Of a DNA stretch of 40,915 nt, positions 7,789 to 40,915 are shown in pieces. The notes below the pieces were generated by a model that saw only the letters and a list, made by a program, of their open reading frames with translations, did no database searches and had not been told where the DNA came from. Numbering within the stretch: the stretch's first letter is position 1; each line of letters opens with the position of its first letter. The stretch is from an uncultured Candidatus Saccharibacteria bacterium (GTDB lineage: Bacteria > Patescibacteriota > Minisyncoccia > GWC2-36-17 > CAYHJU01), in contig CAYHJU010000003.1 in assembly GCA_964357175.1 (NCBI GenBank), positions 1 to 40,915 of the forward strand, written 5' to 3'. The translations under genes were made by a program, and so were the position numbers.

Positions 7789-8097
7789 TTATTGCACTAT
7801 GGTCTTACATTTTTTACAAAAACGAATTTTCTTGCCCCCTTCCAGACGATAACCGACTCGAGTCGGTTTCGAGCAACTAGGACAAACTAATGCCGCGTTG
7901 GCTGAAGATATTGGAGTTGGGAATTCAACTCTCTGTCCTTTTTGCCCCTGTTTTTTGGGCTTTACGTGTTTTTTATGCAAAGACACTCCCTCCACTAGGA
8001 CTTTTGACACCTTGGGCAAAACACGCGCAATGACACCCGTTTTCCCATGGTCTTTACCTTTTAAAATGTATACTTTGTCGCCTTTTTTTAATCTCAT
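7789..8097 (-). CDS. rplX: 50S ribosomal protein L24
   Basis: KKGDKVYILKGKDHGKTG, KVLVEGV. Confidence 0.96.
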   Translation of the reverse strand: MRLKKGDKVYILKGKDHGKTGVIARVLPKVSKVLVEGVSLHKKHVKPKKQGQKGQRVEFPTPISSANAALVCPSCSKPTRVGYRLEGGKKIRFCKKCKTIVQ

Positions 8098-13599: not shown

Positions 13600-13977
13600 T
13601 TAGAGCATTTTGAGTTCTATTTCCACGCCAGCTGGCAAACTTAAATTCGTAAGAGCGTCTGTTGTTTTGGGATTAATATTAACTATATCTATCAATCTTT
13701 TATGGACTCTCAATTCATATTGTTCTCTTGAATCTTTGTGCACAAATGTAGATCGATTAACGGTATATTTTCTGAATTCGGTAGGCAAAGGTATAGGACC
13801 TATCACATCTGAACCATTGCGCAGTGCCGCATCCACTATTTGCTTGGCACTATTGTCAATAATTCTATTGTCATAGGAACGGATCTTTATCCGCACCTTG
13901 GTCTTAAATCCTTTACCGTCTATTTCTGGAGAAGCTTCCGGTTTTTTAGACACTTTTTTAACTGATTTTGGAGACAT
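13600..13977 (-). CDS. rpsJ: 30S ribosomal protein S10 (NusE) with N-terminal extension
   Basis: [40 protein letters not shown]. Confidence 0.97.
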
Positions 13978-23125: not shown

Positions 23126-23207
23126 TCCTCCAGAGGCGGACGGATCGCGCGCCTGCCTGCCGCCTGCCTGCCGGTAGGCAGGGTAGGCAGGAATTTAGAG
23201 AATGATT
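23126..23207. repeat. Cluster of mini-palindromes with a self-nested CCTGCCTGCCGGTAGGCAGG
   Basis: TCCTCCAGAGGCGGA at 23126-23140. Outer copy 23152-23162 plus 23183-23191 is split by an intact copy at 23163-23182. Followed by GAATTTAGAGAATGATT, matching half of the 27764 palindrome. Confidence 0.8.
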
Positions 23208-30193: not shown

Positions 30194-31978
30194 ATGACAT
30201 CAAATGAGATCCGAGAAAAATTTCTAAAATTTTTTGAACAAAGGGAACATGCTCGCGCTCCCTCTTCTTCACTTTTGCCAGACGATCCTTCGGTGCTTTT
30301 AACTACTGCCGGAATGCAACAATTCAAGCCGTATTTCACAGGACAAGCCGACCCAATAAAGGATTTTGGCAAAAAAAGCACGACATCTTCTCAAAAATGC
30401 TTTCGCACTTCGGATATTGACGAGGTGGGCGATGAGCGCCACCTGACATTTTTTGAAATGCTGGGAAATTTTTCTTTTGGCGGTTCGCCAGCTGGCGAAT
30501 TAAAAAAAGAAGCAATAAAATACGCCAATGATTTTATAAAAGAACTCGGGCTTGAAATTGATTATGTGACAATTTTCGGTGGCGATCCTGATGTCCCCGA
30601 AGATAAAGACTCAGAAAAATATTGGCTGGAGCTTGGAATTCCGCAAGAAAAAATCAAAAAAATGGGACGCGCGGATAATTTTTGGGGACCTACGGGAAAT
30701 GAAGGCCCTTGCGGTCCGACAACTGAAATTTATGTAAAACCGTCCAAGGAGACCGAAGCCATAGAAATATGGAACGTTGTTTTTAATGAATTTTACTGCC
30801 ATCCAGACAAACATTTAGAAAAACTTTCCACCCCCGGAATTGATACAGGAATGGGACTTGAACGACTGGCCGCGGTCGTCCAAAAAGTTCCGACTGTTTT
30901 TGATACGGATTTATTTGAGCCAATATTAGAAGTTATAAAATCAAAAGAGATTGGTACCCCGGACAGAGATGTCAATGTTATAAAAGCGGAAAGAATTGTA
31001 GCTGATCATATGAAAAGCGCCGTGTTTTTGCTGACTGATGGCATTAGACCATCAAATGTTTTGCAAGGATATATTTTGCGCAGAATAATTCGTCGCAGTA
31101 TCAGGTACGCCAAGATGTTGGGACTTCCGGCTGATTTTTATGCAGACGTGATTGATGAGATTATAAAAATATATGACCACAACTACCCGGATATTTTAAA
31201 ACAAAAAGATGCAATTTTAGATGAACTGCAAAAAGAAATTCAGAAATTTGAAAAAGCAGTTGAACACGGAATTAAAAAATTTGAAGAGTTTTATAATCAG
31301 AAAATTTTTGAAGATGAGGCTTCTGGTGCCAAGTGCGCCTTTGAGCTTTATGAGACATACGGCTTCCCTTTTGAGCTAACCGAAGAGCTTGTGAAAGAGC
31401 GTGGAGGAAAATTGAATAAAAATCTTTTTGAAGACGAGCTTTCACGCCACCAAGAAATTTCCCGCGCGGGAGTTGAGAAAAAATTTGGTGGACACGGACT
31501 AAAATTGGACACGGGCGAACTTAAAGCGGCAAGTGAAGAAGAATTAAAAAAAGTCACGAGACTCCACAGCGCCACCCATTTGCTTCACGCTGGACTGCGC
31601 AAAGTTTTGGGCGACACGATTCAGCAACGCGGATCGGACATTACCGCCGAAAGATTGAGGTTTGATTTTTTGTTTGATAGAAAATTAACAGATGAAGAAA
31701 AGGCGGCCGTGGAAGAATATGTAAATGACGCTGTAACTGCCAATGTTGAAATGATTCATAAAGACGCGCCATACGAGGAGGCAATCGCTTCGGGATTTTT
31801 GGCATTTTTCAGAGGCAAATATCCCGCCATTGTTTCTACTTATGAACTTCCGGGCTGGAGCAAAGAAGTTTGCGGAGGCCCGCATGTTTCACGAAGTGGT
31901 GAAGTGGGAAAGTTTAGAATTATCAAAGATGAAGCGTCCAGCGCTGGAGTAAGAAGAATCAGAGCGACGGTAGAGTAA
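30194..31978 (+). CDS. alaS: Alanine-tRNA ligase, short form lacking C-Ala
   Basis: LLTTAGMQQFKP, SQKCFR, HLTFFEMLGNFSFG, IDTGMGLER, ADHMKS, editing HSATHLLH and CGGPH. Confidence 0.96.
   Translation: MTSNEIREKFLKFFEQREHARAPSSSLLPDDPSVLLTTAGMQQFKPYFTGQADPIKDFGKKSTTSSQKCFRTSDIDEVGDERHLTFFEMLGNFSFGGSPAGELKKEAIKYANDFIKELGLEIDYVTIFGGDPDVPEDKDSEKYWLELGIPQEKIKKMGRADNFWGPTGNEGPCGPTTEIYVKPSKETEAIEIWNVVFNEFYCHPDKHLEKLSTPGIDTGMGLERLAAVVQKVPTVFDTDLFEPILEVIKSKEIGTPDRDVNVIKAERIVADHMKSAVFLLTDGIRPSNVLQGYILRRIIRRSIRYAKMLGLPADFYADVIDEIIKIYDHNYPDILKQKDAILDELQKEIQKFEKAVEHGIKKFEEFYNQKIFEDEASGAKCAFELYETYGFPFELTEELVKERGGKLNKNLFEDELSRHQEISRAGVEKKFGGHGLKLDTGELKAASEEELKKVTRLHSATHLLHAGLRKVLGDTIQQRGSDITAERLRFDFLFDRKLTDEEKAAVEEYVNDAVTANVEMIHKDAPYEEAIASGFLAFFRGKYPAIVSTYELPGWSKEVCGGPHVSRSGEVGKFRIIKDEASSAGVRRIRATVE
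30484..30499. repeat. 16-nt palindrome inside alaS
   Basis: TTCGCCAGCTGGCGAA; same CGCCAGCTGGCG core as the intergenic palindrome at 37763-37784. Confidence 0.75.
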
Positions 31979-35337: not shown

Positions 35338-35357
35338 CCTGCCTGCCGGCAGGCAGG
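35338..35357. repeat. Perfect 20-bp palindrome CCTGCCTGCCGGCAGGCAGG
   Basis: Same family as 23152-23191. Confidence 0.85.
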
Positions 35358-37495: not shown

Positions 37496-37756
37496 TCACT
37501 CAAGTTGAATCACCAATAATCCTTTTTCTTTAATTTCTTTTTCTTGGCCGAATTTATTTAAATCAAATTTTAAAACATAGCCCACCCTCCTCTCGATGCT
37601 TCTGCCTGTATATTCTTTAGTTTCAGGATCCCATTCTTCCAAAACCAAAGCGTCACCCTCTTGAATATCAAAGTCGTTAAGTCTTAATTCAAATTTTTTC
37701 TTTCCAGAAGAAACGAGTTCAAAATATTCCGGTGTGATTTTCTTTTTTATTATCAT
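37496..37756 (-). CDS. DUF3850/ASCH (PUA-like) domain protein
   Basis: KKITPEYFELVSSGKKKFELRLNDFDIQEGDALVLEEWD...YTGR. Confidence 0.88.
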   Translation of the reverse strand: MIIKKKITPEYFELVSSGKKKFELRLNDFDIQEGDALVLEEWDPETKEYTGRSIERRVGYVLKFDLNKFGQEKEIKEKGLLVIQLE

Positions 37757-37762
37757 AGATTT

Positions 37763-37784
37763 TATTCCGCCAGCTGGCGGAATA
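37763..37784. repeat. Perfect 22-bp palindrome TATTCCGCCAGCTGGCGGAATA
   Basis: Read directly; core shared with the alaS insert. Confidence 0.85.
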
Positions 37785-37808: not shown

Positions 37809-39005
37809 TTAAGATTTGATTTTTGAGATTTGTTTAGCCATCTCCCCCATTTCGTCTGTCTTTAAAACTAAAACTTCAACTTTTGATCCTGCAGAGCTTA
37901 TCGCGCCGTCTTTATCTATAATTTTTTCATTTTTTGACTTATCAATTTTGATTCCTAAAAATTCTAAATCTTTGCATATACGAACGCGCATAATTGGCGA
38001 ACCCTCACCGATGGCGGCTGTAAAAATGAGCGCATTCAGCCCACCCATCGCCGCCGCGTAACTTCCGATATATTTTTTAACACGATAAGAAAAAATATCC
38101 AATGCCAGTCGCGCTTTTTTATTGCCCACTTCATCTAATTCTATTAATTTTCTTACATCCGCCGTTTTTTCGCTCAAGCCCAAAAGTCCGCACTTTTCAT
38201 TTAAAAACTCATCTAATTTTTTTGGCGATAAATTTAATTTTTGCTGTAAATAAACAAGGGCTCCGGCGTCAATATCGCCTGTTCTTGTGCCCATTACAAC
38301 CCCCTCAAGAGGTGTAAATCCCATAGACGTATCAAAGCTTTTGTCGTTTTTCACAGCCGTAATGCTTGCCCCACTCCCCAAATGGCAGATGATTATTTTT
38401 TCAGGAATTTTCTTATTTTTCTCTTTTAATTTATTGATAATAGACTGGCAGGAAATACCATGAAATCCATATCTATGGATTTTCAAACTCTGGGAAATTT
38501 TAAATGGCAGACCATAAAATTTAGAAACATCTGGCAAATCTTTATGAAATTCCGTATCAAATATCGCCACCTTTTTAATATCTGGCAATATTTTCATAAA
38601 TTCTTTTATTTCTGAAATAACAGGTACTAGATGCAAAGGGGCAAGTTCTTTTATTTTTTCTAGCTGAAGAATAAAATTTTTATCAATTTTAGTCGGCGCA
38701 AAAAACTTTTGACCTCCGTGCACCACTCGAAAACCCAAAGCGTCAATTTCTCTTCCTGTTTTTATCAATTTTTCCTTTTTTAAAATATCTATTATTTTCT
38801 GGCTACTTTTTAGAAAATCATTTTTTGAAATTTTAAAACTTTTTTTAGGCTCGCCGCCTCTTTCCTCCCCAAAGGGGTAAATGTGCGACATAAAGCCGTC
38901 TCCCGCCATTTCAAAGTGCGCAAAAAACCTGCGCCTTCCGTTCTCATAAAAAGCGTATTTTTGTGAAGAACTGCCGACATTTACGATTAAAAGTTTTTTT
39001 GCCAT
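37809..39005 (-). CDS. ackA: Acetate kinase
   Basis: LIVNVGSSSQKY, GFRVVHGG, LAPLH, FDTEFH, RYGFHGIS, CHLGSGAS, TSMGFTPLEG, FTAAIGE. Start at 39005 or 39011, overlapping the xfp stop. Confidence 0.95.
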   Translation of the reverse strand: MAKKLLIVNVGSSSQKYAFYENGRRRFFAHFEMAGDGFMSHIYPFGEERGGEPKKSFKISKNDFLKSSQKIIDILKKEKLIKTGREIDALGFRVVHGGQKFFAPTKIDKNFILQLEKIKELAPLHLVPVISEIKEFMKILPDIKKVAIFDTEFHKDLPDVSKFYGLPFKISQSLKIHRYGFHGISCQSIINKLKEKNKKIPEKIIICHLGSGASITAVKNDKSFDTSMGFTPLEGVVMGTRTGDIDAGALVYLQQKLNLSPKKLDEFLNEKCGLLGLSEKTADVRKLIELDEVGNKKARLALDIFSYRVKKYIGSYAAAMGGLNALIFTAAIGEGSPIMRVRICKDLEFLGIKIDKSKNEKIIDKDGAISSAGSKVEVLVLKTDEMGEMAKQISKIKS

Positions 39006-40915
39006 TGCCAATTTGTTATTTCTTCGGGATCAACCCCGTATTTAATAATATAATCCTTGTGTTTTATAATTTTGTCTTTATATTGGGCCATGAGTTTTTC
39101 TGCTTTGTCTGCACTCACCAACCCTCTTTCGCCCATCAGGCCCAGTGCCTCTATCACCAGGTGCCACCTGCTAGTATTGTTGCGAAGCTGCATATCAAAA
39201 GGAGTGGTGGTGGAGCCGCTTTCTGTGTAGCCATGAACTAAAAATCTTTCCTGATTTTTCTCGCCAAAAAGCACCTGTTTGAAAGTTTCCGGATATCCGT
39301 AAAAATTAAATATCACCGGCTTGTCTTTAGTAAAATATTTTTCAAAGTCCATAAACGGAACTTTGCACTCTCCTTCGCTAAAGCCCGCCGCGGTAAGCTC
39401 TATGATATTTACAAAACGAATTCTTATTTCCGGCACAATTTTTCTTAAAATATCAATAGCGGACAGGGCCTCTTTGACTAAATAATCCCCCACTGCCGAT
39501 ATTACGATGTCCGGATTTTCATCGCTGGCAAAATCCCAAACACTCAATCCTTTTTCTAGTTCTTTTTGCGCTTGATCCAGTGTGAGCCATTGAGGTTCGT
39601 CGGTTTTCCCCGCGGCTATTATATTTATTTCATTTTTCGACTTCAGGCATTTTTCCAAAACAGCCAAAGCGCTATTGGCATCTGACGGAAAATAAACATG
39701 CACAAAGCAACCGTGCTTTTCAAGCATATTGCTTATAAATCCGGGATTTTGATGAGAAAAGCCATTGTGATCTTGCCTCCAGCCCGGGGAGGTTAAAATG
39801 TAATTGAGCGACGCCACCTCGCCTCGCCAATGAATTTCACGCATATGTTTTAAAAACTTGGCATATTGGTCTGCCATACTGCTGACAATTTGCACAAACG
39901 CTTCATATGACGCAAAAATCGCATGGCGACCTGTCAAAATGTATCCCTGAGCCAGTCCCTGCAAATTGTGCTCACTCAACATTTCCATAACTCTGCCTGA
40001 AGAAGAAAGGTCTTTGTCCCACTTTTTTAAAGGCAATGCAAAAACGCGCTTGGTAGAGGTAAATACTTCATCCAATTTATTTGAATAAGTTTCATCCGGC
40101 GACATTAGACGAAAATTTTTGTTTTCTTTATTTAGATCAAAAATTTCTTTTAGGCAGCGCCCTACTTTTTTCATACTACTAGCGAAGACGGTGCCAGGGT
40201 TTGCAATATCAAAATTTATCGCAAGGCTTTTAATGTCTGGAAGCAAAAGCGGCTTGTAAGAAAACGCTCCGAAGGCGTGCTTGTTTTGTCCCATTTTATA
40301 TTCATCCTCCGGTATAATATCTAAAATATCTTTGGCGAGCCCACTGTTTTTATCAAAAATTTCATTAAACTTATATGAACGCATCCATTTTTCTACGGCC
40401 TTAAGCTCCACCTTGCTTGTTTTAGCGCTCGTACCCACGACTTGATGGGACAAACAATTTCCCTCAATTTTTTCTCCGTGCAAACTTTTAATGCCCGTCC
40501 ATCCCTTGGGGGTCTTAAGTATTATCATCGGCCAGCGGGGCACTGCACCGTCCTTTCCTGAGCGCGCTTTTTCCTGAGTGGCCCTAATAGATTGATGTGC
40601 CTTTTCTAAAACATCAACCATTTTCTTATAGACCTTATCACTGTGGCCTTCCACAATAATTGGCGCGTATCCATATCCATAAAATAGAGATTTTAATTCT
40701 CTATTGGTCATTCGGCCAAAAATGGTAGGTCCGGAAATTTTATATCCATTGACATGAAGTATCGGCAAAACCGCCCCGTCATTTTTTGGATCAATTAATT
40801 TATTCAGATGCCATGATCCGGCCATAGGCCCTGTTTCCGCCTCACCATCCCCCACCAAACACGCGCTTATTAAATCGGGATTATCCAAAACGGAACCATA
40901 AGCCGTAGATAGGCT
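38987..40915 (-). CDS. xfp: Xylulose-5-P/fructose-6-P phosphoketolase, N-terminus outside the window
   Basis: GDGEAETGP, LHVNGYKISGPT, PDETYSNKL, EMLSEH, YEAF, WRQDHNGFSHQNPGF. The frame stays open to the edge (SLSTAYGSVLDNPD), so the TTG at 40888 is internal. Confidence 0.96.
   Translation of the reverse strand, partial: SLSTAYGSVLDNPDLISACLVGDGEAETGPMAGSWHLNKLIDPKNDGAVLPILHVNGYKISGPTIFGRMTNRELKSLFYGYGYAPIIVEGHSDKVYKKMVDVLEKAHQSIRATQEKARSGKDGAVPRWPMIILKTPKGWTGIKSLHGEKIEGNCLSHQVVGTSAKTSKVELKAVEKWMRSYKFNEIFDKNSGLAKDILDIIPEDEYKMGQNKHAFGAFSYKPLLLPDIKSLAINFDIANPGTVFASSMKKVGRCLKEIFDLNKENKNFRLMSPDETYSNKLDEVFTSTKRVFALPLKKWDKDLSSSGRVMEMLSEHNLQGLAQGYILTGRHAIFASYEAFVQIVSSMADQYAKFLKHMREIHWRGEVASLNYILTSPGWRQDHNGFSHQNPGFISNMLEKHGCFVHVYFPSDANSALAVLEKCLKSKNEINIIAAGKTDEPQWLTLDQAQKELEKGLSVWDFASDENPDIVISAVGDYLVKEALSAIDILRKIVPEIRIRFVNIIELTAAGFSEGECKVPFMDFEKYFTKDKPVIFNFYGYPETFKQVLFGEKNQERFLVHGYTESGSTTTPFDMQLRNNTSRWHLVIEALGLMGERGLVSADKAEKLMAQYKDKIIKHKDYIIKYGVDPEEITNWQWQKNF

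Follow-up and report, generated by a model that had tools for sequence, protein, structure and literature searches.

How can a perfect GC-rich palindrome come to lie in a nearly invariant motif of an essential enzyme, and how does the enzyme live with it? This question is raised by the gene of alanyl-tRNA synthetase (AlaRS), alaS, in a stretch of 40,915 nucleotides (contig CAYHJU010000003.1 of assembly GCA_964357175.1, called the window in the following) from an uncultured groundwater bacterium (Candidatus Saccharibacteria). The genome of this bacterium comprises 757,863 bp in 30 contigs, has a GC content of 39% and is estimated at 100% completeness and 0.24% contamination. Here, we show that the palindrome is a member of a family of short dispersed repeats, denominated family B, and we consider it likely that a copy of this selfish hairpin repeat has settled in the sole alaS of the genome, where it is tolerated in a permissive loop.

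The palindrome in alaS and the remodelled connector

The alaS gene occupies positions 30194..31978 of the forward strand, encodes 594 amino acids and is the only alanyl-tRNA synthetase gene of this genome according to the list of open reading frames (ORFs), the Pfam matches and a search of the whole genome. Its product is a short AlaRS of the Patescibacteria type that possesses catalytic, tRNA-recognition and editing domains but no C-Ala domain, with Pfam matches to tRNA-synt_2c (E=3.7e-117, 392.6 bits, cut-off 30.3) and tRNA_SAD (48.4 bits, cut-off 24). At 30484..30499 the gene contains the perfect palindrome TTCGCCAGCTGGCGAA of 16 nt, which has no strand of its own, represents the TT subtype of family B and is read as (G)SPAGE(L). 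Around it the remodelled connector G96-G97-S-P-A-G-E-L-K104 (30479..30505, forward strand) is encoded by GGC GGT TCG CCA GCT GGC GAA TTA AAA, with a further AAA behind it, and takes the place of G-G-Y-F-K, so that the protein reads GNFSFG-G-SPAGEL-KKEAI at this site. When it is compared with the AlaRS structures of the PDB by phmmer, SPAG appears as an insertion and E-L is aligned onto the Y-F of GD-YF-K. From the conserved block GN(F/W)S(F/L)G(D/G)Y(F/W)K the parts GNFSFG and K104 are retained and Y(F/W) has become SPAGEL. This makes the protein less typical in sequence, but as far as its sequence tells it is still an AlaRS. A literature search found no paper that pairs the string GDYFK with alanyl-tRNA synthetase. 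The initial annotation of this DNA, made from the letters alone, had placed a palindrome within alaS at 30479-30505, on which sequence, ORF and Pfam agree, and had supposed that it replaced the DYF of GDYFK. The loss of YF stands; the loss of D does not, since the motif of this clade is G-G-Y-F-K and G97, which stands at the D position, is retained, YF alone being replaced.

The comparison with homologous enzymes is based on the 120 best matches from a search of 5.8 billion proteins, all of them Patescibacteria or Parcubacteria-type short AlaRS and 118 of them full-length over the region. Between GNFSF and K(K/E)EAI the connector comprises four residues in 108/118 (GGYF 76, GGYW 15, GDYF 4, GGNF 3, others 10) and 8 to more than 25 residues in 10/118 (~9%), and at the end of all 118 connectors stands Tyr, or Asn in four of them, with Phe, Trp or Gly behind it. 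The connector of the window protein, G-G-S-P-A-G-E-L, has gained net four residues (+12 nt) and lost both aromatic ones. On the DNA level the site reads GGG GGT TAT TTT AAA CAA in L023 (68% identity to the window AlaRS), GGC GGA TAC TTC AAA AAA in L024 (65%, syntenic over more than 12 kb) and GGA GGA TAT TTT AAA AAA in L003 (61%); in none of these three closest relatives compared at the DNA level is there a palindrome at the alaS site, and all three keep the Tyr and Phe codons. This alignment with close relatives, which the initial annotation had suggested as a check, bears out its description of the site as near-invariant and of the change as an in-frame insertion with a small replacement (relatives read GG(N) TAT/TAC TTT/TTC AAA).

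A family-B copy would accordingly have entered alaS at the AT-rich codons for G-Y-F-K-K (GGT TAT TTT AAA AAA), whereby a few bases would have been replaced rather than plainly added to, giving G-SPAG-EL-KK and a loop after the motif-2 strand GNFSF that is longer by four residues. The reading frame was kept because the net gain is 12 nt. As the closest relative is just 68% identical, two equally simple paths are left. Either the 12-nt core was placed after the first T of TAT, leading to G-SPAG-DFKK, and two T-to-A changes followed, one of which would have extended a palindrome of 14 nt to 16 nt, or AT was replaced by CGCCAGCTGGCGAA (14 nt) in an ancestor with Tyr-Leu; Leu at the position of Phe is known from the AlaRS of L005.

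Longer inserts occur at the same connector in other lineages, namely +28 aa in G005, +22 aa in G029 and +10 aa in G034. In the AlaRS genes of L161 (G005), L008 (G029), L164 (G034), L025 and L026 the inserts at this place comprise 4-28 codons and are GC-rich and partly self-complementary, and Y(F/W)K is retained in all five. The inserts of G034 and G029 are single-copy in their own genomes and show tolerance of insertion only, on which ground the idea that the alaS loop attracts dispersed repeats in further lineages was rejected. Additionally, the alaS alignments of G013, G014, G034 and G025 break at query residues ~181-189 or ~431-440, and these splits probably indicate further lineage-specific insertions in other AlaRS loops.

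Is such an enzyme still functional? The search of the whole genome, rated complete, gave a single match to tRNA-synt_2c, which refutes the second alaS that the initial annotation had considered. Its further statement that the frame and all other motifs are intact is confirmed by the uninterrupted ORF of 594 codons and by an alignment of 59 proteins (window protein included), in which every other invariant column is kept. In the catalytic core these columns include R71, N194, D217 and G219, in the editing domain H458, H462, C560 and H564; we take R71 to be the Arg of motif 2, N194/D217/G219 to form the alanine pocket and H458/H462 (HxxxH) together with C560/H564 (CxxxH) to form the editing site. 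An AlphaFold2 model based on the same alignment has a mean predicted local distance difference test (pLDDT) value of 86 and shows, with high confidence, residues 88-95 as strand, 96-99 (G-G-S-P) as loop and 100-117 as helix, with pLDDT 84 and 93 for the block; compared with the catalytic fragments of AlaRS crystal structures it reaches a target-normalised template modelling score of ~0.85. A predicted strand-to-helix loop at this place and the ~9% of close homologues with insertions there favour the option, already named in the initial annotation, that the enzyme tolerates the insert, and it would do so because the connector is a permissive surface loop of variable length. The single AlaRS match in G032 (L011) reads GNFSFNNACSKKEAI, with neither a Tyr-Phe pair in the protein nor a palindrome in the DNA. 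Since alaS is the sole copy, the invariant residues are kept, the length of the loop varies and G032 lacks the aromatic pair, we infer that the AlaRS with the SPAGEL connector is active.

Family B in this genome and among its relatives

The alaS palindrome belongs to a GC-rich repeat that is dispersed over the genome and forms hairpins; the 16-mer of this repeat is TYCGCCAGCTGGCGRA. That its core matches a palindrome at 37763-37784 had already been noticed in the initial annotation, and both indeed have the 12-mer core CGCCAGCTGGCG in common, the second palindrome, TATTCCGCCAGCTGGCGGAATA, being a perfect one of 22 nt. In the window CGCCAGCTGGCG is found twice exactly and once with one mismatch, whereas shuffled sequences lead to an expectation of 0.03 matches at ≤1 mismatch, so that the shared core is not due to chance. 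The inexact third match (13626-13637) is without TY/RA flanks and probably a chance match. In the whole genome CGCCAGCTGGCG occurs 14 times exactly, and 28 copies differ by at most two mismatches from TYCGCCAGCTGGCGRA, where by our estimate about one copy is expected by chance. Only the symmetric subtypes TC..GA and TT..AA are present and no mixed forms. Counted outward, positions +1 (R) and +2 (A in 54/56 arms) are conserved and +3 (T) is so weakly, which defines the unit as 16-18 nt. The 16-mer of alaS is identical (16/16) to the TT-subtype copies at C8:24353, C15:9408, C20:16896 and C27:7654 (contig and position), and with the copy at C15:9408 it has 20 nt in common, TTCGCCAGCTGGCGAATTAA.

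Many of the copies are intergenic. The TC-subtype copy TATTCCGCCAGCTGGCGGAATA (37763..37784, no strand) sits in a gap of 52 nt between the ORFs 37496..37756(-) of 86 aa and 37809..39011(-) of 400 aa, 6 nt upstream of the start of the former and 24 nt downstream of the stop of the latter, which matches the acetate-kinase gene of the relative L024. In L024 (position 14158) the orthologous gap between the acetate-kinase gene and an ASCH/DUF3850-like gene holds a diverged family-B-like palindrome, TTCGCCGGCTGGCAAA, and this hints that some intergenic copies may be old or functionally retained. Copies nested inside other family-B-like arms are seen at C29:2100, C29:4599, C25:8327, C26:6188 and C7:2392, an example being TTCGCCA-TCCGCCAACTGGCGGA-GGCGAA, and ~8/28 copies are clearly nested. 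Two nested copies stand directly upstream of GGAGG and ATG of ORFs with 618 and 802 aa, and some family-B copies are part of terminator-like hairpins.

Besides alaS, further coding sequences contain family B in frame. In mnmA (C6:11452-12615) the copy lies in the C-terminal barrel domain and is read as ...FFEISNL-NPPAGG-QISKL..., in recJ it encodes SASWR within the linker that joins DHHA1 to the OB domain, and the C15 copy contributes to the final 11 codons of a histidine-kinase gene (NSPAGELNLKK and stop); two more in-frame copies are found in unannotated ORFs. The frames used yield small or flexible residues (PPAGG, SPAGE) or SASWR. The mnmA copy is accompanied by AAATCTC heptamer repeats that are in frame as well. 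The mnmA gene of G017 (L149), a genome from the same order, contains the same palindrome in the same loop in a different frame (SASWR), and in its congeners G001 and G014 mnmA is without palindrome, the net difference being exactly 12 nt. This suggests that the mnmA copies of the window genome and of G017 are either independent hits or a very old copy that was reframed. Odd GC-rich codon runs such as PPAGG, SPAGE and SASWR in such genomes are repeat copies and not errors. Of 61 related genomes from the same order and class, which have 0-14 copies each, 25 contain the family-B 12-mer, and none of the 61 contains the reversed control 12-mer.

GIY-YIG cassettes and the origin of the insert

In other genomes the palindrome is associated with genes of small GIY-YIG nucleases. 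A scan of reference genomes for TCCGCCAGCTGGCGGA over 596 Gb revealed at least 120 loci; this raw count is uninformative because ~139 chance matches are expected by estimate and many matches in high-GC genomes are IRQLAE-type codons, and what is drawn from the scan is confined to multi-copy loci and their context. In L088 (Wolfebacteria, 2190-2530) the palindrome stands on both sides of a GIY-YIG minigene, each time in a 5' stub of tRNA-Asn in which the D-loop bases AAT have become TCCGCCAGCTGGCGGA, and an intact tRNA-Asn follows. In G017:C148 (L165, 447-845) a tRNA-Asn stub with AGT turned into TCCGCCAGCTGGCGGA precedes a nuclease gene and an intact tRNA-Asn. The order of both cassettes is tRNA-Asn 5' stub, ~85-aa GIY-YIG gene and intact tRNA-Asn, and their nucleases are 62% identical. 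In both, the nuclease ORF extends at its 3' end into the tRNA gene. In L081 and L055, too, the palindrome is close to a small GIY-YIG gene; altogether adjacency to such a gene was seen at 3 of the 120 loci scanned and in 1 of 7 relatives. The ~85-aa nucleases are GIY-YIG members by Pfam, and searches in NCBIfam and PDB gave weak matches. A transposase of the Y1 type, as in the REP-associated tyrosine transposases (RAYT), was not found, PF01797 having no match in the window genome (in a control 6/14 reference genomes matched).

How copies spread can be sketched as follows. Single-strand nucleases like the Ssn enzymes would cut at or near hairpins, and templated repair (gene conversion) would carry copies into loops or AT-rich runs. 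In alaS and in the tRNA stubs 2-4 bases are replaced by the palindrome without target duplication, and this fits break and templated repair better than cut-and-paste. The alaS palindrome lies in the loop between the arms of a latent inverted repeat rich in AT (30471..30512, forward strand), made up of TTTCTTTT in the F-S-F codons and AAAAAAAG in the K-K-E codons, which brackets the palindrome and extends its hairpin. The RNA of 30470-30515 folds with a minimum free energy of -16.7 kcal/mol (z = -3.3) into an outer stem of 8 bp around the inner palindrome stem of 8 bp. This inverted repeat may have played a role in targeting.

A more far-reaching proposal, which we put forward tentatively and hold to be rather doubtful, is that family B represents a minimal mobile unit without genes, copied in trans by ~85-aa Ssn-like nucleases with the tRNA-Asn cassette as their home and remodelling loops of essential enzymes. 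The cassette inside tRNA-Asn genes would be self-preserving. Nicks set by the nuclease in single-stranded hairpin loops or in AT-rich runs would be repaired from another copy, and 2-4 bases would thereby be exchanged for the palindrome. Because small flexible residues (PPAGG or SPAGE) are encoded on either strand, the palindrome could settle in the loops of essential enzymes, and loops in the streamlined proteomes of Patescibacteria would be remodelled recurrently, including even the near-invariant GDYFK of AlaRS. If both the link to the nuclease and the copying by repair are true, such elements would rank with the smallest mobile units of DNA that have been described.

Several observations weigh against a selfish repeat tolerated in alaS or against parts of this explanation. 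Glu-Leu in place of the aromatic pair is found in 0/118 other homologues, and the activity of the AlaRS is deduced from sequence and model. The window genome contains six small GIY-YIG genes (Pfam), none of which lies within 400 nt of a family-B copy. Family B is "solo" in this genome, with no cognate nuclease gene adjoining any copy, and the best homologue of the B-linked nuclease encoded here is just 36-38% identical; therefore, the link to the nuclease rests on other genomes. Seven intergenic copies, usually located inside AAATCTC-type heptamer repeats, have direct repeats of 3-4 nt (TCAA, TTGA, TTAA, CAA) that resemble target duplications, so that together with the replacement at alaS and the stubs the signals from the flanks are mixed. 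Landing of family B in pre-existing hairpin loops is not significant over the genome (p = 0.16 versus random sites, 0.07 versus cross-paired flanks). As a rule for both repeat families of this genome (family A is described below) it was rejected, since the flank-pairing energies of 28 family-B and 43 family-A copies are not significantly lower than at random sites or for cross-paired flanks (p = 0.16, 0.10, 0.07, 0.10). That the alaS loop is a hot spot for repeats is shown for this genome alone. Given the non-significant flank pairing and the single-copy inserts of G034 and G029, loop targeting is therefore suggested with caution. Finally, heterogeneity of the population, or a consensus error common to assemblies of the same samples, is conceivable.

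The latter leads to the question whether the palindrome is absent from the real alaS and was brought in by a chimeric join at a repeat or by a consensus error. Short palindromes can confuse assemblers, and the coverage of the ENA contig discussed here is low (its name says cov 4). Nevertheless, we regard such an artefact as highly improbable, because the insert is exactly in frame with collinear alaS on either side, the separately named ENA contig Hain_H41_02um_R3 (10.7 kb; by its name from the Hainich H41 0.2-um samples, ERZ1292630 and siblings) matches the window at 100% identity over 7785 nt, three contigs in public assemblies code for exactly this 594-aa protein, and further genes of this genome, as well as mnmA of G017, contain the same repeat in frame. 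The least credible of all explanations is that the palindrome arose in place, by a local template switch or quasi-palindrome correction in alaS, and is not a repeat copy. Template switching perfects palindromes, and the target lies in the AT-rich inverted repeat described above; but the 16-mer would then hardly be identical to four other copies of the genome or have 20 nt in common with the C15 copy, and the relatives are without a GC-rich precursor at the site.

Patescibacteria are regarded as episymbionts, and a crippled or inactive alaS product could be compensated by alanyl-tRNA or enzyme supplied by the host, or the hairpin could be removed on the RNA level. Both aromatic residues are lost from a motif that is nearly invariant in the 118 homologues, which speaks for such a defect. 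It is contradicted by the intact ORF with every other invariant residue kept, by the single alaS, and by the AlaRS of G032, likewise without YF, and of L005 with Leu at the position of Phe; moreover, we know of no mechanism for the precise excision of a hairpin of 12-18 nt from bacterial mRNA, and none of the observations calls for handling on the RNA level. A dead enzyme is thus very unlikely. A small but appreciable chance is left to a functional signal, such as an operator, a terminator or leader hairpin, or a sequence for DNA uptake or modulation of transformation, of which the alaS copy would be a by-product or a regulatory variant acting on ribosome pausing or mRNA stability. Many copies are found in short gaps at gene ends or just upstream of a Shine-Dalgarno sequence (37763-37784 and the C29 copies), the orthologous gap of L024 also has its family-B-like palindrome, the 12-mer core is constant letter for letter across many families, and the comparable NTS repeats of Neisseria together with SsnA modulate transformation (PMC11893778). 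In contrast, a signal restricted to intergenic regions would not be expected in coding loops of alaS, mnmA and recJ in varying frames, nor would copies be nested within one another and within tRNA stubs, and the distribution among relatives (0-14 copies) is patchy. The selfish repeat in a permissive loop remains the explanation we prefer.

Known systems and other palindromes

Selfish palindromes in frame in essential genes are known, and the case described here is one with a much shorter element. The Rickettsia palindromic elements (RPEs), the subject of work by Ogata and colleagues from 2000, are reportedly dispersed and found in frame in protein-coding genes including essential ones. They have ~100-150 bp and add 30-50 residues, and we know of no enzyme associated with them. 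Family B shares with RPEs the palindromic nature, the in-frame position in essential genes, the peptide at tolerated surface positions and the small AT-rich genome. It differs in size, having 16-22 nt (roughly ten times shorter) and adding four residues in alaS, it has no resemblance to the RPE sequence that would be apparent by description, and its palindrome stands beside GIY-YIG minigenes in other genomes. The cyanobacterial small dispersed repeats/HIP1 and the GC clusters of yeast mitochondria are GC-rich palindromes of 8-40 nt on an AT-rich background that are sometimes nested and occasionally coding. Compared by description, family B resembles them in size, GC-rich palindromes, nesting and occasional coding copies, but sequences and hosts are others; to our knowledge neither a GIY-YIG nor a tRNA-stub cassette belongs to them.

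Like repetitive extragenic palindromes (REPs) and REPINs, family B consists of short, imperfect to perfect palindromes that are dispersed in tens of copies, for the most part between genes, and for both a single domesticated enzyme acting in trans is presumed to move the copies. In contrast with them, no Y1_Tnp/RAYT gene is found here, and REPs are essentially extragenic whereas family B is also present in coding sequences. Miniature inverted-repeat transposable elements (MITEs) are defined by terminal inverted repeats and a target duplication of fixed length at every copy, and in family B direct repeats of 3-4 nt accompany seven copies and none alaS or the stubs.

A likeness also exists to the Ssn systems, in which GIY-YIG nucleases for single-stranded DNA are paired with hairpin repeats (NTS/dRS3, "Ssn-related motifs"; Chenal et al. 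2025, PMC11893778). The motif given there has ~28-30 nt with CGTCATTCCCGCG-N3 loop-GCGGGAATCYRG and oriented flanks, and it is also given with the 3' part GCGGGAATC as CGTCATTCCCGCG...GCGGGAATC, the GTCATT flank being in agreement (PMC11893778). As in these systems, the hairpin repeat is short, GC-rich and multi-copy, it stands in L088 (on both sides) and in G017:C148 beside a small GIY-YIG gene of a single domain, the nucleases have hairpin variants of their own, and some family-B copies lie in repeats with a CGTCATT 5' flank. The differences are that family B is a bare perfect palindrome of 16 nt with CAGCTG centre and with another stem and loop, so that it does not match the published motif, that the tRNA-stub layout and the colonisation of genes in frame are not mentioned in the parts of that publication consulted, and that a GIY-YIG gene adjoins family B in L088 and G017:C148 but not in the genome studied here. 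By analogy, the family-B cassettes appear to resemble Ssn systems, the nucleases of which form the clade cd10448; the ~85-aa proteins are placed by their Pfam GIY-YIG membership. In other phyla 10/136 copies have the 5' flank GTCATT within 30 nt upstream, compared with 1.7 expected. In L081, L091, L095, L114, L042 and L064, all from other phyla, the 16-mer lies within longer repeats with the 5' flank (C)GTCATT; L114 additionally has the 3' flank GGGAATC, and both of its flanks match the published Ssn-related motif. Among the 15 entries listed by a literature search, judged by title and the opening of the abstract, none was relevant to insertions of palindromic repeats in Patescibacteria.

The alaS of the window can be considered as a natural experiment, in which an essential single-copy AlaRS lost its aromatic pair and gained four residues while it is otherwise intact. 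This means that the strand-to-helix connector after motif 2 may be far more plastic than its conservation implies. At the same time it is a clear case from an essential gene for the colonisation of very small Patescibacteria genomes by ultra-short GC-rich hairpin repeats that can enter coding DNA in frame, and direct sequence identity ties one of these repeats to GIY-YIG/tRNA-stub cassettes that resemble Ssn systems.

Family B is accompanied by a second and commoner family of perfect palindromes, family A, with CCTGCCTRCCGGYAGGCAGG of 20 nt and ~48 copies in the genome, which shows that this genome was colonised by at least two hairpin families. The window contains two copies of family A, none of them with a strand: the perfect CCTGCCTGCCGGCAGGCAGG of 20 nt at 35338..35357, intergenic between convergent ORFs, and a copy with one mismatch at 23163..23182, nested in arms of the same kind (gcctgcctgccg...gtaggcagg). 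The palindromes beside the GIY-YIG genes of this genome, CCTGCCTGCCGGCAGGCAGG and CCGCCTGCCGGCAGGCGG, are of the family A type. At C1:51350 a family-A copy is located 30 nt upstream of a GIY-YIG minigene within a sequence that resembles a tRNA D-loop, and many family-A copies are nested in repeats of the CCCACACC or AGTAAATAG type. A further perfect palindrome of 18 nt, AACCGACTCGAGTCGGTT, is found at 7851-7868 and is unrelated to these families.

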